Source: Glaucostegus cemiculus
Lineage: Eukaryota
DNA length: 64,000 bases
Reading direction: 5' to 3'
Assembly: GCA_976551045.1 (NCBI GenBank)
Contig: CDPCPM010000263.1
Span: 4,092,001 to 4,156,000, forward strand
Positions 3,232 to 62,859 of the stretch are shown piece after piece. The position numbers and the translations under genes were made by a program. How positions within the stretch are numbered: the stretch's first letter is position 1; each line of letters starts with the position of its first letter. Below the pieces are notes generated by a model. The model made no database searches and was not told the DNA's origin. It was given only the letters and a program-made list of their open reading frames with translations.

Positions 3232-3650
3232 AAGACACAAGAGATTCTGCAGGTGCTGGAATCTGGAGCAACACACACAAAATGCTGGAGGAACTCAGCA
3301 GGTCAGGCAGCATTTATGGAGGGAGATGAACTGCTGACACTTTGGGCTGAAGCCCATCATCAGGACTGGAAGGGAAGAGGGCATAAACCAGAATAAAATG
3401 GTGGGGGAGGGGGAGGAGCACAGGCTGGCAGGGCATAGGTGAGTCTGGGTGAGAGGGGGAAGGTAGGTAGGTGGGGGAGGGGGGATGAAAGGGAGTGAAG
3501 TGAGAAGCTGGGAGGTGATAGGTAGAAGAGGCAAAAGGGTAGAGAAGATGGAATCTGATGCGAGAGGACAGTGGACCATGGAATAAATGAGAAACTGGGT
3601 TTTTGCTGTGGTTTACTGTCCTCTCCTATCAGATTCCTTCTTCTTCAGTA
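3232..3650 (-). mobile_element. Penelope-like element terminal repeat (pLTR) with decayed hammerhead motif
   Basis: Reverse complement homologous to 55035-55295; CAGTC-CTGATGA-tGGGCTtcAGCCC-AAAGTGTC at 3331-3370; 3610-3648 is an inverted copy of 3543-3578. Confidence 0.7.
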
Positions 3651-3674: not shown

Positions 3675-3775
3675 GAGACACAGGAGACTGCCGATGTTGG
3701 AATCTGGACCAAAAATAAGCCACTGGAGCAACTCAGTGGGTCAGGCAGCATCTGTGGAGGGAAACGTTCAATCAG
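3675..3775 (-). mobile_element. Penelope-like terminal fragment
   Basis: Second copy of GGAATCTGG..CTGGAG.AACTCAG..GGTCAGGCAGCATCTGTGGAGGG seen at 3255-3325. Confidence 0.6.
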
Positions 3776-12549: not shown

Positions 12550-12760
12550 CGACATAAGAGATGGCTGGAATTTGGAGCAGCACACAAAGCGCTGGTGCAA
12601 CTCAGCAGGTCAGCAATCACCTATGGAGGGAAGTGGACAGTCAACATTTTGGGTGGAGACCCTTCATCTGGACTGAAAGATAGAAGGGAGATGGCCAGTG
12701 TAGAAGGGTAAAGGGAAGGGGTGGAGCAAGAACTGGCAAAAGATTTGCCAGATGAGGAGC
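12550..12760 (-). mobile_element. Penelope-like pLTR with decayed hammerhead
   Basis: Minus strand CAGTC-CAGATGA-aGGGTctccACCC-AAAATGTT-GACTG at 12638-12675. Confidence 0.65.
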
Positions 12761-29877: not shown

Positions 29878-30025
29878 GAGAAACAGGAGACTGCGGATGC
29901 TGGAAACTGGAGCAACACACAAGAAGCAGGAGGAACTCAGTGCGTCAGGCAGCATCTGTGAAGGGAAATGGATGTTCGGGTTTGATACCCTTCATATGGA
30001 CCCTCCAGCTATTTGTTTGTTGCAC
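29878..30025 (-). mobile_element. Penelope-like terminal fragment
   Basis: GAGACTGCGGATGCTGGAAACTGGAGCAAC..GGAACTCAG..GTCAGGCAGCATCTGTG; decayed hammerhead remnant. Confidence 0.55.
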
Positions 30026-38738: not shown

Positions 38739-38892
38739 NNNNNNNNNNNNNNNNNNNNNNNNNNNNNNNNNNNNNNNNNNNNNNNNNNNNNNNNNNNNNN
38801 NNNNNNNNNNNNNNNNNNNNNNNNNNNNNNNNNNNNNNNNNNNNNNNNNNNNNNNNNNNNNNNNNNNNNNNNNNNNNNNNNNNNNNNNNNNN
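38739..38892. other. Assembly gap (154 N)
   Basis: Run of N. Confidence 1.
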
Positions 38893-45194: not shown

Positions 45195-45450
45195 TTCCAC
45201 TTCCCTCACTTCTGCTCTCCTTCCAGCCAGAGCAAGGTCAAGTTTCCCCTTGACCTCGCCTTCACCCACCAGCCTCCACATTGAATGAATCATCCTCTGT
45301 AATTTCCACTAGATTCAACAAGTTACCACAACCCGTCACATCTTTCCCCTCCCCTTTCAGTGTTCTGAAGGGACCATTCCCTTCCTAGCTTTGTTCTTCC
45401 ACCTCAATAGTCCGGCTCTCCTTCTCATGGCACTTTCCACTTCTACTGCT
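45195..45450 (+). mobile_element. Penelope-like ORF fragment (RT-to-GIY-YIG linker)
   Basis: Homologous to reverse complement of 62480-62595 (CACATCTTTCCC..AGGGACCA; T.HIFP.P.LS.FRRDHSL). Confidence 0.55.
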
Positions 45451-49897: not shown

Positions 49898-50435
49898 GCA
49901 GGGACAGTATGCGGTTAATTCAAACGTAAGGCGCATGTAACAGTTAAAGACAGGACTGTGAACAGCACTGATGTACAGAGGAATCTTGGGATCCAAGTCC
50001 ATAGTTTCCTGAAAGTATATGGAATGCAAGTAGAGCAGGTGGTAAGGAAAGCATGTGGCATGTTTGCCTTCATTGATCGGGGCATTGGGTATAAGAGTAA
50101 GTAACTCATGTTGCAGAAGAGTTAGGCTGCACTTGGAGTATTATGTGCAATTATGGTCACCCCATTACTGGAAGGATGTGGAAGCTTTGGGAAGGGCACA
50201 GAAGAGGTTTACCAGGATGCTGCCTGGATTAGAGGGTATGACTTATAAGGAGAGGTTGGACAGACTTAGGCTGTTTTCTCTGGAACGTCAGAGGTTGAGG
50301 TGAGACCTGATAGAAGTTTGTAAGATTATGAGAGGCATAGATAAGGTAATGGGATTAACTTGAATGTACATCTTGGGCGGCATGGACACGTTTGGGCTGA
50401 AGGGCCTTTTTCCGTGCTGTACTACTCTATGACTT
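49898..50435 (+). mobile_element. CR1 RT C-terminal fragment and tail
   Basis: VRLHLEYYVQLWSPHYWKDVEALGRAQKRFTRMLPGLEGMTYKERLDRLRLFSLE. Confidence 0.9.
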
Positions 50436-51289
50436 TGACAGCCATAATTTTGATTAGTTGCCAATTATTATCAGTCAATTCTAGTTTAGTGCTGGACTGG
50501 ACAGCTACTCACTCACTTGTACTGACTAAAAATTATGAATTTGCAGATTTTTGTGTGTGTGTGAGCGAGAGAGAAACCAAATTCTACTTTACTGTCATTC
50601 AAATAAAAACTATGCAATCTTTTGAGATACCAAAACTTCCATAATTCTGCACCTTTTAATACAGACCAAGGTGCCAGGATGGAATATTTTTTAAATCTAT
50701 AATAAACAGAGGCCCTTTGATCAGTGCATATACCTGAAGGAAAATCACCTTCTAGACCAGGAAATGGTGTGTGGCTGGAGGAGTCATAAAATAAAAAGGT
50801 CTTTTTGTGGCCAGAATCATGCAGAGTGGGTAATAAAGTCTTTTTATATGAGAACATTGTGAAGACTTATTTGATGTGTTTGGCTTGAAGACAGTTTGGG
50901 CAATGCCAGGAAAAGGTTAATTTTCACTCTCCATAGACTCCTCTCTGGGTAAGTGAGACCGTCTCTGAGGTGGTGAGGTTAATTTTTAGTTAACTGTTTG
51001 GAGGACAGCCTGTCCCAGCCAGCAGCAAGGAGAAGACCCAGGTGATGTACTTCAGGCCAGACTAGTTGAAAACCAAATAGGCCAGGTAGTAGAGTGATGA
51101 GAAGAATGAGCAGTAGGAATGACAGGTGAGAGAGCTGGAGCAGCTATCCTGCAAGTTGGGAGTTCTTAGTCCTATCATTCCAAACTACTAAATAATGGGA
51201 TTCAATACATAGTTCATTACTGGATTGGATGTTGTTCATGATTTTATATATTAAAAAAATATTGGATTGCCATTGAAAACATTTAATAC

Positions 51290-51550
51290 TTGCCTTTAAA
51301 TCATGCCTTTCATGTAATCAACAGAGTACCTGTACAGTGCAGTTATAATGTAGGAAATCTGGCCCCAAAGTTGTACACAGCAATTTCCAACAAACAGCAG
51401 TGCAGCTGCAAGCAGATAATCTATAACCATGATGCTGACTGAGGGACAATTATTGGTCAGGACACCAGGGGATGTCTCTGGGTTTTGATCTTTCATTGAC
51501 AGGCAGGCAGGACCTTGGTTTAAGGGCCCATCCACATTGGCAGCACTGCC
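51290..51550 (-). mobile_element. Deu-domain SINE relic
   Basis: GAGGGACAATTATTGGTCAGGACACCAGGG and CCTTGGTTTAA resemble the Deu-domain reverse complement. Confidence 0.5.
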
Positions 51551-51664
51551 AACCAAGCAAAATCCTCTTGATACCATGGTATCCTCTCGATGGTATCCAT
51601 GGTATCCTCTCGATACCATGGACATCTGTAGCGACTGCATTTATTGTTCATCTGTAATTGGTTT

Positions 51665-52283
51665 TGAACTGAGCATCTTGCTGGACCACTCCAGCATGCA
51701 GGTAAGAACAGAGCATCTCATACCCATCTGAACTGAGCATCTTGCTGGACCACTCCAGCATGCAGTTAAGAACAGAGCATCTCATACCCATCTGAACTAA
51801 GCATCTTGCTGGACCACTCCAGCATGCAGTTAAGAACAGAGCATCTCATACCCATCTGAACTGAGCATCTTGCTGGACCACTCCAGCATGCAGTTAAGAA
51901 CAGAGCATCTCATACCCATCTGAACTGAGCATCTTGCTGGACCACTCCAGCATGCAGTTAAGAACAGAGCATCTCATACCCATCTGAACTGAGCATCTTG
52001 CTGGACCACTCCAGCATGCAGGTAAGAACAGAGCATCTCATACCCATCTGAACTGAGCATCTTGCTGGACCACTCCAGCATGCAGTTAAGAACAGAGCAT
52101 CTCATACCCATCTGAACTGAGCATCTTGCTGGACCACTCCAGCATGCAGGTAAGAACAGAGCATCTCATACCCATCTGAACTGAGCATCTTGCTGGACCA
52201 CTCCAGCATGCAGTTAAGAACAGAGCATCTCATACCCATCTGAACTGAGCATCTTGCTGGACCACTCCAGCATGCAGGTAAGA
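51665..52283. repeat. 64-bp minisatellite, 9 full units plus a 43-bp partial
   Basis: Unit TGAACTGAGCATCTTGCTGGACCACTCCAGCATGCAG(G/T)TAAGAACAGAGCATCTCATACCCATC starting at 51665, 51729 ... 52241. Confidence 0.97.
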
Positions 52284-52814
52284 GTCAATCGCATTGTTGG
52301 GGCTGGAGTGACATGTGGGTAGACCAGGTAAAGAAAGCAGATTTCTTCCCATAAAAGATATTAATGACAAACCAGTTAGTGTTTGCCCTGGTAGTTTCAT
52401 CTCACCATTAACATTCCTAGTCTTTCCCTTACAATCCAAAATTTAGTTGGATTTGTACTCTTGCATCCAGATCAATATTGTATACCAGCCCTCTTGCTTA
52501 AACATTGTGTTACCATATCTCTGGCTAACAGCACTATGACAAGCTCATCATGTGTGGAAAATCTCAGCTGCTCCATTAATTGTGCCAGTGCCATACTCTC
52601 CCTCAGTGAGTCTTCCAGCTCTTGGGATCCAGTATCCTTCTTTCCAAAGCTGATGAGAGTGTCGCTGTGGTCCAACTTCCATCAGCACCACTGGAGCACC
52701 CGTTGCTATCCACTGTTGTAATTTGCCACATTACAGTGAGCAAGTCATGGGTAATGTTGCATGTTTCCTGACCACTTATGGAATAAAAAATACACATGAT
52801 GTTAGACGTAGAGC

Positions 52815-53140
52815 CGTGGGGTCATAGAGAGATACAGCATGGAAACAGGCCCTTCAGCCCACCAGGTGTGTGCTGACCATTTACATTAATCCTACATTAA
52901 TCCCATTGCTACTTTTGTTTTCCCCACAGCTTCTACCACTCTCCTACACATGAGGGGCAATATACAGTGGCCAGTTAATCTACCGACCGGCATGTCTTTA
53001 GGATGGGGGAGGAAACCAGAGAACCTGGAGCAGGTCCATATGGTCATGGGGAGAATGTGCAAACTTCACACAGTCAGCACCAGAGGTCGCGATTGACCCA
53101 GGTCTCTGGTGATATGAGGTAGCAGCTCCACTATGCTGCC
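52815..53140 (-). mobile_element. V-domain SINE
   Basis: CAGGCCCTTCAGCCCA tail; GGAGGAAACCAGAG; ATTGACCCAGG. Confidence 0.75.
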
Positions 53141-55034
53141 TTTCACACCTTTTAGAAGAGAATCGTGACTTCCATTTAGACATCTTTTATCAGCATCCAG
53201 GATAGCTTCTAATGATGATGTTTGGAATTCTGATTATCTATTGATGTGAATGATATGGTGCAATATTTGTAGTTTCATTGCTCCTTTACCTTTGTGGCTG
53301 TCCACTACTGTGTAACATTCTGACGACTCATCTTCCTGTTAGTTGGCTATCTGAAGAAGCTTTAGTAGATCTAATAATTCCTTTTCAGGTAGCCTAATTT
53401 GGTTAAAATTTTGGCTCTCTTAAGCAAAAAAAAGGTGTGCCACGTACAAACCACTAAAAAAATAACTTAGATCTTGTTTAGCAAATGGTGTTGAAAGGAA
53501 ATGGCAAGTATCCACAGCCTGAGCACTCTGATTTCCTCCGTGGCGTTTACATTAATGGGGCAACGAGCAGTTTATTAACAGTTGGCACATTGTGAAAAAT
53601 GAACATCAATCCAGTTACACACTGGCGAGTTCCTGCTGTCAATATTTATTTAATTTGTACAACAGGATTGTGATTGGAGGAAGTGTGGGCAGTTCCAACA
53701 GCTTGTGATGACTCATAAGCTGGTAAAATGTAATTGTCTCCAACAGAGTTATCAGAAACTATCTCCAGATGACTTCTACCAAAATCAGGGAACTACTGCA
53801 TGAGGATTAGAAGATGCAGAACACACGGGATATCACGTCTAGAATCAAAAAGTAAATAATATGCTTCAAGCATTAGTAACCATCTCAATGTCCAAATGAA
53901 AGAAAGAAAATACATGATTTTCTTATTTCAAATAATTAAAAAAAACTATTACACACAAGTACAAAGACAGGATTCAATTCAGATGAGACTTTCAGAAATT
54001 GGTTTCACTTCCTGTAATTTCTGACTTCATGTTGTTCAAATAAAATTCTTCTTCGATTCCCTTTAGTGCTGTGATATTTATATATGAGTGGGAGTTATAA
54101 AATGTATTGTGAAGTGTTAGCTGTTATTTGCACAGTAGATACTGCTCTCTTTATGTTGTTTGATTCCATGTTTGTTAGTCTTCAAATGCTGCCTGTTGGA
54201 TTCTGGTGGAAGTATTACCATATGTAATGAAATAGCAATCTCCTCGCTGGAGGTCATATATTAATTGGCATTTTATTAGTGTTTATTGGTGAAACTGGTA
54301 TTAGCTCAATCTGCACACCAGCGTTATACAATAAATGATTTTGTGGCTAGGAATTGTTTGGTGATTAGTTTGCTGATGCCTGCTTTGTTTCTCTTCGGTG
54401 GACAGCACTGGCGATTGGATTATTGATTATTGGATTGTTGATTATTTTGGGAGACTGGAGGCACATTGATTCAGCACTGCTCCCTTTGATGCCAGGTTCT
54501 GGGGCAGAATCCAATACAGATTAAAGGGATGAAAATCAATTTGCCCCTTATGAAAATAATGTCATGAAATAAGCCTACTGCAGAACATGGCATTAAAGGG
54601 AAAGGTGCTGGCTCATTGAGCCTCCATTCTATGTCCACTTCCAAGTTGCTTTTTTCAACAACAGATTGTCGCAATATCAAACACTTAGCTCAGACCAGGG
54701 GTTTCCTATGGTAAGGGAACAGCCACACAGAGTGATACCTCTCCTTTGAAAGATTAAATTGACAGGCTCTTCCCCATCTTGAGCTTCAGGTGAATGCTAA
54801 TAGTTCTATGAAAACAGGGTGTACCAGACAAAATCTTATTCTGCATTGAAAGTGGGAAGAAAATAAATACTTACATTTATAGAAATCACAATCATAGGAT
54901 ATCCCAAAGTGCCCTTCAGCCAGTCATATTCCTTTTTGAACTAGTAACTGATGGCAAATATGTAACACAGCTAACGTGGTCACAGCAAGCTTCAACAAAC
55001 TGCAGTGAGTTCCAACCCTGAAGACATATGGTAC

Positions 55035-55295
55035 TATCACCTATCACCTCCCAGCTTCTTGCATTATTCCCAATCCCCCCTCCTCCCCCATCTACCTACC
55101 TTCCCCCCTCACCTGAACTCACCTATCACCTACCAGTCTGTGCTCACCCCCATCCCCCACCCTTTTATTCTGGCTTCTGCCCTCTTTGTTTTCCAGTCCT
55201 GATGAAGGGTCTTGACCCGAAACGTCGACTGTTTATTTCCCTCCACGGATGCTACCTGACCTGCTGAGTTCCACCAGCACTCTGTGTGTTGTTGC
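55035..55295 (+). mobile_element. Penelope-like pLTR
   Basis: Reverse complement of the 3232-3530 element; contains intact hammerhead core. Confidence 0.75.
55194..55231 (+). ncRNA. Minimal type I hammerhead ribozyme motif
   Basis: CAGTC-CTGATGA-a-GGGTC(tt)GACCC-GAAAC-GTC-GACTG: stem I CAGTC/GACTG, stem II GGGTC/GACCC, palindromic ACGT in place of stem III; predicted cleavage after C55226. Confidence 0.8.
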
Positions 55296-55569
55296 AGTTC
55301 GTGTCGAGGTTGCATCCACCCAAACAAGTGGAGGATATTCCATCACACTGCCGACTTGTGTCTCGCATTTGGTGGAAAGGCTTTGGGGTGTAAGTTTTTT
55401 TTACTCTTTTACCTCAGAACAAGACCAAATTGTTTTCCAAGAATAGATATTCTGCATGCAACAAACTGAAAATCTTTTTTCATTAAGAGGCTTCTAATGA
55501 AAGGGGTTATTACATGAAGCAGCCAGAAATCTTTGGCTCAGGGCCCTCAAACGTACATCCGAACCACCT

Positions 55570-55672
55570 CCTACATACTGTGTAATAAATTGACCTGTAC
55601 AATCGGTATGCAAGATAGGTTTTTCACTGTACCTGGGTACAAGTGACAATAATAAACCAATACCAGTACCAA
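55570..55672 (+). mobile_element. Rex1/Babar-type 3' tail
   Basis: TTTTCACTGTACCTGGGTACAAGTGACAATAATAAACCAATACC. Confidence 0.55.
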
Positions 55673-56454
55673 CACTCTGCAGCCTTGGATTGAGAATGCT
55701 GCCTTCTGTTGTGCTCTGAGTTCACCCTGACACAGAATTAGTTACAGTGCTATGTGATGGTGCAATGAAGTCATTTTGCAATGAGTGCAACAAGTGGCCA
55801 GGCACTAACATCACAGCTAGGAGAAGTAATGTTCAGACTTCAGCCTTAGCTGGATTCCAGTTAAGATGTGACATCTGTAGACAGGCGCTAACCTACTGGG
55901 GCAGAACTGAGCCAAAAACTTCACTGGTGCATATTTGTTGAGTAGGGATCTCGAATGGTTCCTAAGTTATATTTAATATCATTATTCTAAAGGTGCTGTA
56001 ATGTTTTTCAAACTACGACTTTGTCTACTATCTTGTGGAAACATTTTGGTAGTGGTTCAGGGAAAACCAATAGCCGCATCAGTAGTTGTGAACAACCTCT
56101 GAATGTGGTCAGTTCCAGGGTGCTGCAGTAGGCTGAGCGAGATTCAAAAACTTTACTTTTGTTTTGGAACATGAACCTTTTCTGGGCAGTTTTCTGAAAG
56201 TTTTGCCGGGCGTGATTTATCATTTCTTCCCATCCCACCCCATTGATGTGAGACTCCAAGAGAGGCAAGCTGTGCTCTCAGGGCCACGTAGCTAACCAAC
56301 CTCGACTAAAGTCGGCTCCTTTTTTTTACAGCACAGACCTGGATTTTAATTTATTTCACAGATCATTTTAATGACGGCGTTATATTTAGTTTCAAGGGCC
56401 CTCCTTCTCTTTCGGTGACTACCACAATACTCTACAGATCTGCTCACCAGCCTG

Positions 56455-56625
56455 AAACAAAATCAGAAAATGCTGGGAACAGGTCGGGCAGCATTTGTGG
56501 AAAGAGGAATGGAGTTAAAGTTTCAGGTGGGAGTCCCTTGTCAGAACTGGGACAGATCCCTCTCCACAGATGCTGCCTGAACCGCTGATGTTTGACACTG
56601 TCAGTATCTGCAGATTGTTTTCGTT
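56455..56625. mobile_element. Fold-back Penelope-like terminal element with decayed hammerhead
   Basis: GGTCGGGCAGCATTTGTGGA pairs with TCCACAGATGCTGCCTGA; minus AGTT-CTGACAA-GGGACTCCCACCT-GAAAC-TTT-AACT. Confidence 0.5.
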
Positions 56626-57337
56626 CATTTAATGCTCATCAGACTTATTTCCCCAAGATGTTCCTTCAGGGAACCTCGACCAATTCACAGCTGGGGGCTG
56701 CTTCACATCACTCTCCGCCAGTGAGCTGTTCTGCTAACGTCCGTCCTCGTTCATTCCCGTCTTCCTCTCTTGTTTTACTTCAAACTCGCTACTCTCTCCC
56801 ACTTCTCCCTCTGCGCCACTGACAATCCATGGCACCAGATATTCCCCTTCTCACCCCATTCTCCCTCTCTTACTGCCCGTTCTCTTCTCTCAAAGTAATC
56901 ACTGTATAAGTGATGTGATTTCCCAAAGTCAATGCTTCCACCTCTGATTATATTACTTCACTCCTTCGAATCTGCCCCCTAATGATATTAATCTGATAAC
57001 CAACTTGTAAGCAGCAAAATCAATCAGTTTAGAATGATGGATCACAAGATCCAATTATTTGGGGACGCCTATTGTCCCGTGGATAGCTAACTCGTTATTT
57101 CTTGTGGGGGCGGGATGGTTTCGGTCACTAGGTGAAAGGATTAGACTGTGTGCCTTGTTCTCCTTATCTAGCCTCAGGTGTGAGGTGGGGCTGTTTATTT
57201 CTTCCTTATTGTTATTTTATATAAAATCCTTTTGTCTCTCTGAGCGCTGCAGGGTTAAGGAAGTCCTTGCTCCAATATTCCAGGCGAGGGCGGAGGGGAG
57301 AGGAGACACAAGGGATGCCCATCATGTTTACATTGGG

Positions 57338-58030
57338 TCATAGAGATATACAGATGGAAAGAGGCCCTTCGGCCCAACTCGTCTGTGCTGACCAAGTTGT
57401 CAACTTGAGCTAGTTCCCTTACCCCCCGTTTGTTCTGTTCCCTTTAAACCTTTCCTGTCCATGTACCTCTCTAGATGTCTTATAAACATTGTAATTGTAT
57501 ACACCCCTACCCGGATTAGGGGAGTCCAAAACTAGGGGGCATAAGTTTATGGTGAGAGGGGAAAGAGTTAAAAGGGACCTGAGGGGCAACTTTTTCAGCA
57601 CAGTACGTGGTGGGTAGATGGAACAAGCTCATTCCACATACCCAGCACCCTCTGTCTGAAAAAGTTGTCCCTCGGGTCCCCTTTAACTATTTCCCCTCTT
57701 ACAGTAAACCTCTGCCCCATAATTTTGGACTTCCCTCCTCTGAGAAAAAGACCTTTTCTATGCCCCTCACGACTTTAATTACCTCTGTTAGGTCACTCCT
57801 CGGTCTCCTACACTCCAGACAAATGTCTTCCAGCCTGCCCAGTCTCTCGTTATAACTCAAGCCCTCTAGTCCTGGTAACATCCTGGTGAATCTTTTCTGC
57901 CCCCTTTCCAGCTTTAATGACACCCAGGCAACCAGAACCACACACGGTATTCCAAGTGCGGTCAACCAATGTCTTGTATCTTCCAGTCCTGTCACCCTGA
58001 TATTACCTGGCCTACTGCACCACTGACGTT
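57338..58030 (-). mobile_element. CR1 3' region containing an oppositely oriented CR1 segment (about 57510-57629)
   Basis: Minus LERGQKRFTRMLPGLEGLSYNERLGRL; plus-strand piece GGACCTGAGGGGCAACTTTTTCA. Confidence 0.8.
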
Positions 58031-58229
58031 TTCAAGGATTTCAGCATGTGACTAGAGTTTATGCAGTGATCTAGTGCAGAGTTGACATTATTGGTTCAGA
58101 TTAAGACAACTGATCGGTGAATTGTTTTTGTAGGAGTGATGTACAGAAGGAAATCGTAGAATCATAGAAACTTTACTGAACAGGAGGTGGGGACTCAAGT
58201 CATCATATCCATGCTGGTTAGACCAGAAT

Positions 58230-58690
58230 TTCAAAAGCATACTTTATTCATAACATATACAGGGAATATGGTCAGTACACTTATTTCTCTCGACCAATGT
58301 GTCATCAATTCAATACGTTCTCTCACAATGAATTAACGCCATTTATGTTTCCTCCTTAAACAATGCATCTGTGAAATGTTTGAGAGGCTGTTACACAGGA
58401 CCCAACCCCTCAGTGTCCCATGGTGACAGGACCCAACCCCTCAGTGTCCCCAGACTATGGTCCTTGCCCACAAAGCCTTTGTGGTTGCTGCACCAGGCTT
58501 CAATGCATCACTCAACATCTGCTCCAGTGACTTGGATTCTGCCTGTTGGCTGCATTCACTTCAGACAAGAGCTCTCCAATCTGATCCCACCTTCCAGCAG
58601 TATCCATAACCCTGCATGACTCTTCAAGAACACATCTAAGTCCTTTTGTAAATATGATGGAAGTTCCTCTACCAGCCTTTCAGGCAGTGA
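58230..58690 (-). mobile_element. Tx1-like LINE 3' end
   Basis: CCCAGACTATGGTCCTT.CCCACAAAGCCTTTG..GCTGCACC homologous to 14450-14510; ACTTTATTCAT tail. Confidence 0.6.
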
Positions 58691-58729
58691 GTTCTGGAAC
58701 TCCCTCCATGGAAATATCATTCCTTATCT

Positions 58730-59143
58730 TCCTTAGGAGGCTTAAATGTATCAGGGCAAGAACGACCAGGCTGAACAATAGCTTCTTTCCGCAAGCCATC
58801 AGAACTGCAAACTCTCTCATCCCTCCATCTTTCGTGTTAACACTAAGAGATGCTAGGTGCACAGAAATGCACCAGCACTTTAAATGCCCGCCACCAGCCT
58901 GTTCACTTTAATAACTATTTATTTATTTACCAGCCATTTTTAATTTAATCTGCATATTAATTTAATTTTAACTTCCGTAGTTTTTAATGTTTAATGTTTT
59001 TTAATGTTTATTTTGTTAAGTGTGTCTGTGTGTCTCTGTTGGTTGTTATTTAATGGGACGAGCACCTGAGGAGGACGGTATCTCGCTCCTATGCATACTA
59101 TGTATGTATATGGTTGTGACAATAAAACTGATTCTGATTCTGA
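58730..59143 (+). mobile_element. Rex1/Babar LINE 3' end
   Basis: RRLKCIRARTTRLNNSFFPQAIR; tail GTGACAATAAAAC(TGATTC)n. Confidence 0.85.
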
Positions 59144-59412
59144 TACTTACCTTTCCATCAACTACTTCAAATCCATGCTCCCTTGCTTTTACACTTTCTG
59201 CTTAGGAAAACACATCCTTTCATTTAGTCTGTTTAGTCCCCAAACAATTTTATGCATCTCACTTAAGTCTGTCCTTATCTTCCTGAAAGCAGACCCGACC
59301 TATTCAATCTTCTTACAGCTAGCAGACTCAGTTCATTTCATTTTGAATGTAATAGAATTGTAGCTCATGCAGAGGCAGCCTTCTAACTTTGAAAGTCAAG
59401 ACTAATTGTCCT

Positions 59413-59725
59413 TAAGATAAGATAAGATAAGGTATCTTTGTAGTCACATGTACATCAAAACACACAGTGAAATATATCTTTTGCGTAGAGTGTTCTGGGG
59501 GTAGCCCGCAAGTATTGCCACGCTTCCGGCACCAACATAGCACGCCCACAGCTTCCTAACCTGTATATCTTTGGAATATGGGAGGAAACTGGAGCACCCG
59601 GAGGAAACCCATGCAGACACAGGGAGAACATACAAACTCCTTACAGACAGTGGCCAGAATTGAACCCGGGTCACTGGCGCTGTGAAGCATTATGCTATGT
59701 GCCTGCCCTAACTACCATGCCTGCC
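59413..59725 (-). mobile_element. Full-length SINE family A
   Basis: (AAGAT)n tail, V-domain, GAATTGAACCCGGG. Confidence 0.88.
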
Positions 59726-61551
59726 CTACTATCCTTCCATTGTCAGTCAAGAGATAACAGCCTTTCATTAAAATTGCAATCTTCACCGAGCAGAGCTTCA
59801 AACTGTTTCCATGGGACCTGTCAGGATGAAGACATCATGCTGTCTGTGTAACCTAGTTCTGCCTGCTGACAGTCATAAGGTGAACATTCATTCCATTTTG
59901 TATGAAGCCCGCGGAAGGGTTAAGCTGTAGAGTTAAGTGCACTAGACATTGTTCTGTGATTGCCTTCAAGCATATCTCACATAAAACAAAGGAAAAGACA
60001 AACATCAATCTAATTTGACTGAATTAGATTTGAAATCAGCTTTCCTCATTGAATGCAACACCGTTTTAAGGCACTCAGTTGTCAACGTCCAGTTTATTTT
60101 AGGCAGAGTCTGTTGTAATCCAACTGCATCCATTTGGATGTAAGGATCAGCAGTTGTGTTTATCACTTGGCACTTACAGAAAGGATAGACTATAATTTTC
60201 AATGTGGCAGGACTTGGCACCAGAACCACCTTAGTGTGAGAATAGGTGGAAGCAATAATTGTGATTTGAGTATTTCTGGTATCCTCAAAGAAATAAACCA
60301 TTATTATGAAATTACAGAGCTATTGGGTAAGCACAGACCAGATTTGGGTATTACCAGCACAACTATTCACTTTCTTCTGTGCAAGAAGCAACAATGCCGA
60401 AATCTTGCCGAGCACGTTTACAACCACAGGCTACACTCAGTGACCAGAGGAATTCTTGTATTCACACCATTTTACACGTTTCTGTCTCAACTTCCTGCTG
60501 TCCACCTGCTCATCACCTCTAAGCTTGTTGATGTGCTTTGGGTCTCAGCACAGCAAAACAGGATAGTCATCCTTGTGCTCAAATTCATCCATGGTTTTGA
60601 CCTGCCTATTTCTATAACTTTCTTTATCCCCACACCCCTCCAACAACTTCCTCCCATTCTGATACTCTGACAGTAGAGTCCTTCATCTTTCTCTCACTTA
60701 ACATGCTTCTCAAAATATAACCTCAAAACTTTTGTTCATCAATCCCAACATCTTCAAATGGACTCCGTGTCATTTTTCATTATACTACTAGCACTTTGGG
60801 CTCTTTTTTAAATGATGTAGAACGCTCAATATAAATGTAAATTTCTTGTTATTAGAGTTGAGGATTTCCCCAAGATACATCCTTTTTGATGCTGTCAATA
60901 TTAACACCCAAAATGTTCAGAGTGGGTGGAAGTGGGAAGAAGGGACAAATGCCTGGCAGCTTTGCCACTGATTTGTTTCATTCCAGGAGATCCTGGCCCT
61001 TTAAGTTATAGTTATGGTAGAGTTCTTCAAAGGACAGCAGATATTCCATTGCAAAACAAAATTTTCAGCCTTAAGTAGAGAGCATACAGAGAATGGAAAA
61101 TGCGGTTACGTGGTAGGCATGAATGTGATGGGCTGAAGGGCCTTTTCCTTCCTTGTATGGTTCTAAATCAGACATAAAACAGAGCTTGTTGCTTTGTGGT
61201 GTCACCAGGGTGGTTACATTACCATTTGCATTTATGCAAGGGAGCTGCAGATTTTTCATCTTTAAAGGTACAACTTGGGATTGAAGGGATAGTCAATGTT
61301 TCAGGTCAAGGCCCTGCATCAGGACGAGAGTGTAGTGAGAACATAGCCAGTGTATAGAAGTGAGAGGGAGGGTGAGACAGAGGTAGCCAGGTGGTAGGTG
61401 GAACCAGATAAGTCGGGGTGGGGGTGATGGGCAACTGGAACAAAGTGGCGGAGGGGGTACGAAGGGTGAACAAAGGATGAAGAAACCGAGGTGGATTGGT
61501 ATATGGTGATCAGCAGATGGAACCAGGTGGGAGAGGGTGATGAGTCTTGTT

Positions 61552-61820: not shown

Positions 61821-62204
61821 TTAATTTGTTAATGAGGGGGAAGGGGATGGAAAAGGTGGAGAGAGAGAACCTGGGTGGACTGGTGGATTTAAAGTTCCCA
61901 CTATATCCTAGAGCCCACTGGGTTACCTGAAATGGGAGAATTCGATGTTCATGCCAGCTGGCTGTAGGCCACCCAAGCAGGGTATGAAGTGCTGTTCTTC
62001 TTGTTTGCATTTGACTTCAAGGTGGCAGTGGAGAAGGGGGAGGACAGGCTGGTTAGTGTGGGATGGGAAAGGGACTTGAAATGACCTGCAAACAAGCTCA
62101 AGATGGCCACTTGAAGGTTCTCTGCACGATGGTCTCCTAATCTACACTTGGCCCCGCCAACATAGAGGAGACCACATCACAAGCACCAAATGCAATAGAC
62201 CAGG

Positions 62205-62372: not shown

Positions 62373-62859
62373 TCGTTTGAATCTGGGCTGTTTAGGTCTC
62401 TGGGTGCTAGTGAGGGGTGTGGGGACAGCTGTTGTTCCGCCTACATTTGCAGAGGAAAATGCCAGGGGATGGGAAGGGGTGGGTGGGTGGGAAGGGATGA
62501 AGCGACCGGAGTGTCACGGAGAGAGTGGTCCCTGCGGAAAGCAGAAAGGGGTGGGGAGAGGGAAAGATGTGACTGGTGGTGAGATCCTGTTGGAGAAGGG
62601 ATGTGGATCCCAGCCGTCCCAGGAGAAGGCAGTCAGACGCCAGCGCCGAGTAACACTATTTGTAACTGGCTTTGTAGAATGGGCCGGTGCAGTGGGCTCT
62701 TGGACACAGTGGGAACTTTAAACCCATCTGCAGTTAACAGATTAAACAGAAGGGAACGCCAGTACCACCTGAGATGCTTGGACTCCACAGGGCTTGCTCA
62801 CGACAGGACTCAAGCGGCTACTGGCGGGCTGTTAACACTGGACCGCACTGCGCCGAGAC

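Follow-up and report, generated by a model that had tools for sequence, protein, structure and literature searches.

Lunse et al. (RNA Biol) reportedly found that hammerheads of Penelope-like elements (PLEs) cleave as dimers. The closest described relatives of the motif studied here are the minimal hammerheads in the pLTRs of metazoan PLEs, including the fish Xena, Poseidon and Neptune elements, which lack helix III and carry a palindromic 15.2–16.2 segment, a helix I of 4–5 bp, a bulge between positions 9 and 10.1 and a G10.1–C11.1 pair, and which are thought to work as dimers (Cervera and De la Pena 2014, PMC4209133). Truncated PLEs leave such motifs as thousands of dispersed single copies, with counts of about 4,000 in coelacanth and 9,000 in Xenopus, and in Schistosoma a single minimal motif gave no cleavage and dimers and trimers gave low cleavage (PMC4209133). 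The main-text portion of that paper names no cartilaginous fish, and our literature search turned up no paper dealing specifically with PLE hammerheads of sharks or rays; such motifs may be listed in its supplements or in those of a 2026 preprint on non-LTR retrozymes (bioRxiv 10.64898/2026.07.22.740005).

The PAc hammerhead of Anolis, which belongs to an active Penelope/Poseidon element, likewise consists of stem I and stem II without stem III in a vertebrate PLE pLTR (PMC11167929). In that study, it is cleaved in vitro only with the element's protein, insertion in vitro is independent of cleavage, and no RNA-seq read ends fall at the cleavage site; the copy studied here, in contrast, has no ORF. 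Neptune-clade EN+ PLEs encode an RT followed by a C-terminal GIY-YIG domain, with a CxxC between GIY and YIG and a CX2-5CxxC linker finger, and show strong 5′ truncation, inverted truncated neighbours, a 30–40-bp tail on some copies and a hammerhead near the 3′ end (Craig et al. 2021, PMC8557442). These traits recur in the family described below, of which, unlike those elements, every copy seen in the studied genome is decayed.

The DNA analysed is a 64,000-nucleotide stretch of the Glaucostegus cemiculus genome, referred to as the window. Positions 55194–55231 of its forward strand hold a 38-nt minimal type I hammerhead with a complete core and a stem I of 5 bp, lying in a short PLE remnant as follows.

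55038–55298 (+): PLE 3′ end (pLTR part), 5′-truncated, ~260 bp, no ORF sequence (sister alignments)
55194–55198 (+): stem I 5′ strand, CAGTC (sequence and structural descriptor)
55199–55205 (+): catalytic core C3–A9, CTGATGA (CUGAUGA) (sequence)
55206 (+): unpaired A between A9 and G10.1 (sequence), a bulge typical of PLE minimal hammerheads (PMC4209133)
55207–55218 (+): stem-loop II, either 4 bp closed by CUUG or 5 bp closed by UU, closing pair G10.1–C11.1 intact (descriptor and fold)
55219–55222 (+): core G12–A15.1, GAAA (sequence)
55222–55225 (+): palindrome ACGT (ACGU), 4-bp stem III possible only between two copies (sequence and fold)
55223–55224 (+): CG, C15.2–G16.2 (sequence)
55225 and 55226 (+): U16.1 and C17, respectively (sequence)
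55227–55231 (+): stem I 3′ strand, GACTG, five Watson–Crick pairs with 55194–55198
55226/55227 (+): what we take, by hammerhead numbering, to be the cleavage site, after C17 of the GUC triplet

The full core (CUGAUGA..GAAA..UC) that the first-pass annotation had placed at 55194–55231 is indeed found there, together with the perfect 5-bp stem I and, in lieu of a monomeric stem III, the ACGU palindrome that it described; its account of the motif's anatomy lacked the unpaired A55206, which corresponds to the conserved bulge of PLE minimal hammerheads (PMC4209133). Its perfect 5-bp stem II holds in part, as five pairs can form if a 2-nt UU loop is allowed (GGGTC-TT-GACCC), while RNAfold returned 4 bp closed by a CUUG loop. 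RNAfold excludes 2-nt loops by construction, so this result says nothing about the fifth pair. Among 24 sister copies picked regardless of the motif, C predominates at 55213 (18/24) and G at 55215 (18/24), so the studied copy carries minority variants at both positions.

Every residue required for catalysis is present in the studied copy. The motif has the CUGANGA/GAAA/UH core, a closed stem II and ends in a stem I within the 4–5 bp range, and it combines the absence of helix III with a palindromic 15.2–16.2 segment and the nucleotide left unpaired between 9 and 10.1. It also lies in a PLE terminal repeat in sense to the ORF; in sisters it is found downstream of the EN stop, in the same orientation. 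Helix II, at 4–5 bp, is shorter than the 7–8 bp of the Schistosoma motifs (PMC4209133). The AUG within the core opens a 21-codon frame (window 55202–55267); in the Anolis element, the ORF begins at stem II (PMC11167929).

The hammerhead at 55194–55231 is not a chance pattern. A strict structural descriptor matched once in the real window and not at all in 200 first-order Markov windows, and genome-wide the core pattern gave 7,394 matches against 5 in a reversed control, the former being a family-independent count with the ACGU palindrome built into the pattern and a second family included. In this second abundant minimal-hammerhead family, positions 7 and 17 are A and U, respectively, and stem I is imperfect (loci L130, L133–L137, L140, L142, L144–L147 and L150–L154, with L146/L147 showing two copies back to back). 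The Rfam hammerhead scan that the annotation had proposed as a check returned no match at E ≤ 10 across 50000–60000.

Searching the genome (2.85 Gb) with the fragment yielded 5,436 first-look candidates, and 39 of the 40 that were scored are non-self matches with 84–86% identity, most of which cover about 55038 to 55289–55298. The sisters have a common 3′ end and variable 5′ truncation, extending upstream to many different lengths and into GIY-YIG and RT sequence, and many of them carry a 3′ tail of ~35–40 nt that the 55038–55298 fragment lacks. The fragment would have arisen by target-primed reverse transcription that started from a PLE 3′ end and stopped after ~260 nt. A candidate target-site duplication (TGCAGT at 55001–55006 and 55293–55298) was rejected, being at about chance level in the stretches compared and leaving 31 nt over. 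At one locus (L115), same-strand terminal pieces ~2.9 kb apart (583–675 and 3446–3647) flank RT/EN remains in the expected pLTR-ORF-pLTR layout, with the upstream piece beginning at the hammerhead core. Five loci on one contig (L042, L045, L046, L054 and L059 on C172) are near-identical (94–97%) segmental copies of PLE-containing DNA, three of which have in common the core change U16.1 to C.

The coding part of the family was reached by following longer sisters upstream stepwise, translating their frames and searching these against Pfam and for protein homologues. Their upstream parts revealed decayed frames with GIY-YIG motifs and, further upstream, RT motifs. Decayed RT pieces gave Pfam RVT_1 matches at E 5e-05 and 2.9e-05, and a decayed EN piece a GIY-YIG match at E 0.012, all below the Pfam cut-offs. 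At E ≤ 1e-20, an RT piece of a sister nevertheless matched 425 homologues. The best of those with a named source (50–71% identical) come from the rays and sharks Mobula, Hypanus, Rhincodon, Chiloscyllium, Amblyraja and Leucoraja, pointing to a cartilaginous fish as host; a PDB search with the RT piece returned nothing at E ≤ 1. One homologue (P0018) carries RVT_1 and then GIY-YIG, both past the Pfam cut-offs, and another (P0096) carries GIY-YIG past the cut-off and aligns to the sister EN piece (E 5e-23); in this alignment, the stretch from GIY to YIG contains a CxxC (CCHH finger). The RT–EN linker of P0096 and of the sister locus L059 reads C-X4-C-X2-C, within the CX2-5CxxC pattern of the Neptune clade.

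The family thus has the RT and C-terminal GIY-YIG order of EN+ PLEs, domains that are absent from the studied copy itself. This order in the longer copies bears out the annotation's assignment to a PLE minimal type I hammerhead and removes the objection, which it had raised against itself, that the flanks might not be Penelope-like. By the definitions of PMC8557442, the family appears to be an EN+ PLE of Neptune type, the choice between Neptune and Nematis being judged on motifs alone. No intact ORF was found among 50 ORF-side loci, where the longest stop-free RT stretch is 394 aa; these loci were those that matched decayed query DNA best, and a younger subfamily could fall outside them. Three ray gene models that bear the names of ordinary enzymes (P0002, a chitinase domain protein; P0005, divergent kinase 1C; P0008, nicotinamide riboside kinase) include this PLE RT, which suggests mis-annotation or exonisation.

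The studied copy stands alone in its surroundings. Neither the 64-kb window nor the next 10 kb contains a second match to the core pattern, and a same-strand partner is absent nearby. The window's other pieces of the same family lie mostly on the opposite strand, with cores broken or missing, and are listed here with internal fragments of related PLEs.

3264–3583 (−): same PLE family, core broken or missing
3602–3648 (+): same PLE family, core broken or missing
3723–3774 (−): same PLE family, core broken or missing
12572–12738 (−): same PLE family, core broken or missing
29904–29970 (−): same PLE family, core broken or missing
61291–61400 (−): same PLE family, core broken or missing
45233–45382 (+): internal fragment (RT-to-EN region) of a related PLE
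61921–62082 (−): internal fragment (RT-to-EN region) of a related PLE
62486–62595 (−): internal fragment (RT-to-EN region) of a related PLE

A match at 852 was rejected as a hammerhead, its GAAA and a stem being missing. At 56482–56582 lies a short fold-back element, whose inverted arms of ~25 bp resemble the family's 3′ end by descent and which encloses a decayed hammerhead of another family (~56513–56548, −; G8 lost, palindrome broken) and is the source of a weak mir-3158 Rfam match. The window further contains a young 64-bp tandem repeat (51665–52283, 9.7 copies, 98%) and a run of 154 N (38739–38892), and the sole matches of 52400–54560 elsewhere in the genome are to an unrelated repeat. 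With regard to host genes near the motif, comparison of 18 + 82 stop-free window frames with Pfam gave nothing above the cut-off, and a crude splice-site scan indicated no exon; a minus-strand last exon near 53650–53790 was dropped as unsupported.

Outside the motif, the studied copy is 10.4% diverged from the family majority, as compared with 9.1±1.9% for one set of sisters (33 copies) and 10.7±2.8% for another (24 copies). Judged by this divergence, the copy appears old, and it is neither young nor special among its sisters. Twelve copies of exactly this 38-mer are present in the genome (11 besides the studied copy), and at the 9 of these 11 other loci that were compared, identity to the studied copy outside the 38-mer is only 74–84%, so that a young subfamily behind the identical motifs is ruled out.

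The preservation of the core was set against the decay of its CpGs by counting copies with the 5′ half of the motif held fixed and the 3′-half CpGs either free or fixed. All three 3′-half CpGs are kept in 403 of 4,163 near-matches (CpG variants allowed), or 9.7%. The C11.1–G12 CpG is retained in 403/853 copies (0.47), and 0.47 cubed predicts 10.5% intact copies, an expectation that presumes equal and independent rates at the three CpGs from a rate measured at one. The intact state of the studied copy matches this prediction. Among copies selected by their upstream ORF region, 1/33 is as complete, which places the studied copy among the best preserved, though chance readily allows for this in a family that numbers thousands.

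Moreover, the C11.1–G12 CpG has mutated from G12 to A, a catalytic loss, in 202 copies and from C11.1 to T, which is tolerated, in 248 (binomial p 0.034), a small asymmetry slightly in the direction of selection. Non-CpG core positions (230/240 kept) are no better preserved than the rest of the motif (447/473; Fisher p 0.59), but have a small advantage over the 3′ flank (1003/1089; p 0.053). Both this core-versus-flank difference and that between 248 and 202 could also be explained by sequence context, A-richness or subfamily variants. CpG decay in the family is near-symmetric and near-neutral. That G12 is lost nearly as often as the adjacent C11.1 simply indicates that, once inserted, copies experience little or no selection to keep cleaving.

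Folding predictions were examined for the monomer and the dimer. The predicted monomer is a rod in which G5-A6-U7-G8 pairs with C15.2-G16.2-U16.1-C17, the core-locking pairs having probabilities of 0.95–0.97 in the 38-mer and, for one pair checked, 0.92 in its 261-nt context. This predicted rod sequesters the core and is not the active fold. For the strand-swapped active dimer, two monomers and the inactive dimer, predicted energies are –19.3, –24.8 and –36.7 kcal/mol, respectively, so that two monomers are favoured over the active dimer by 5.5 kcal/mol; these nearest-neighbour values leave out hammerhead tertiary contacts and Mg2+ stabilisation. An engineered tandem dimer might show weak cleavage in vitro.

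Taken together, the locus very probably represents a PLE-terminal-repeat minimal hammerhead in an old, lone, 5′-truncated fragment of ~260 bp, whose core probably owes its intact state to chance and which is unlikely to undergo cleavage in the cell. The working form of such a motif would be the protein-aided tandem transcript of an active element. In a once-active tandem element, two motifs carried by a single transcript would exchange strands, so that stem I and the 4-bp ACGU stem III form between the copies, and the strand-swapped pair, probably assisted by the PLE protein, would be cut after C17.

The annotation had proposed that this copy may still cleave as a dimer with transcripts from sister copies. 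A low level of such trans cleavage in cells, perhaps aided by the protein of a surviving active PLE, could draw on the intact core, palindrome and stems, on the 7,394 core-intact motifs that carry ACGU by construction of the pattern and are thus partners in principle, and on the weak in vitro activity of minimal-hammerhead dimers (PMC4209133). Nevertheless, we regard it as unlikely. The copy is solo and old, with an intactness expected from CpG decay alone, and its predicted monomer locks the core and is favoured in energy over the active dimer. The strand swap requires a partner with a matching stem I, none of the 50 ORF-side loci holds an intact ORF, and the family decays near-neutrally. Published PLE minimal hammerheads are also inactive as monomers and low as dimers (PMC4209133) or protein-dependent (PMC11167929).

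A bolder version of trans action, to which we give very little credence, is that the core-intact minimal hammerheads of the genome form a latent trans-acting pool. Their monomers, locked by the GAUG/CGUC pairing, would be unlocked by a PLE protein or a host chaperone, whereupon two unrelated host transcripts would pair via ACGU and cut each other.

Even less probably, the ~260-bp piece could itself be mobile, as a non-autonomous retrozyme or SINE-like element propagated via circular RNA. Non-LTR retrozymes, which are PLE derivatives with a type I hammerhead and monomer copies dispersed in the genome, are reported in one chondrichthyan genome, but they require tandem units with at least two complete consecutive hammerheads (bioRxiv 10.64898/2026.07.22.740005), whereas the studied copy is a single truncated PLE end with no tandem array at its locus. 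Among 111 loci with a motif-covering match, 78 are solo, 31 have an opposite-strand partner and 2 have a same-strand partner only (a few loci overlap, and 5 of the 31 also contain a same-strand pair). Moreover, the 5′ end of the piece is not common to its sisters, which continue into GIY-YIG/RT at varied lengths, and such staggered 5′ ends largely refute this reading. Host domestication, for example as an intronic or 3′-UTR ribozyme akin to the RECK and Clec2 hammerheads of amniotes, is scarcely credible, since, although this is the sole complete motif within 64 kb, it has gained neither stem III nor tertiary loop contacts, is as diverged as its sisters, shares its intactness by chance with ~1/10 of copies and has no nearby host gene in the Pfam frame scan or the crude splice-site scan.

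The copy is thus likely an ordinary and inert representative of a known class, and adds one further lineage to the examples of PLE minimal hammerheads. The ~7,400 core-intact minimal motifs in this one genome lie between the counts given for coelacanth and Xenopus (PMC4209133). The finding would carry greater weight only if lone copies were shown to cut host RNA in trans. Should a latent pool of this kind exist, dispersed PLE ends would constitute a genome-wide source of RNA breaks.
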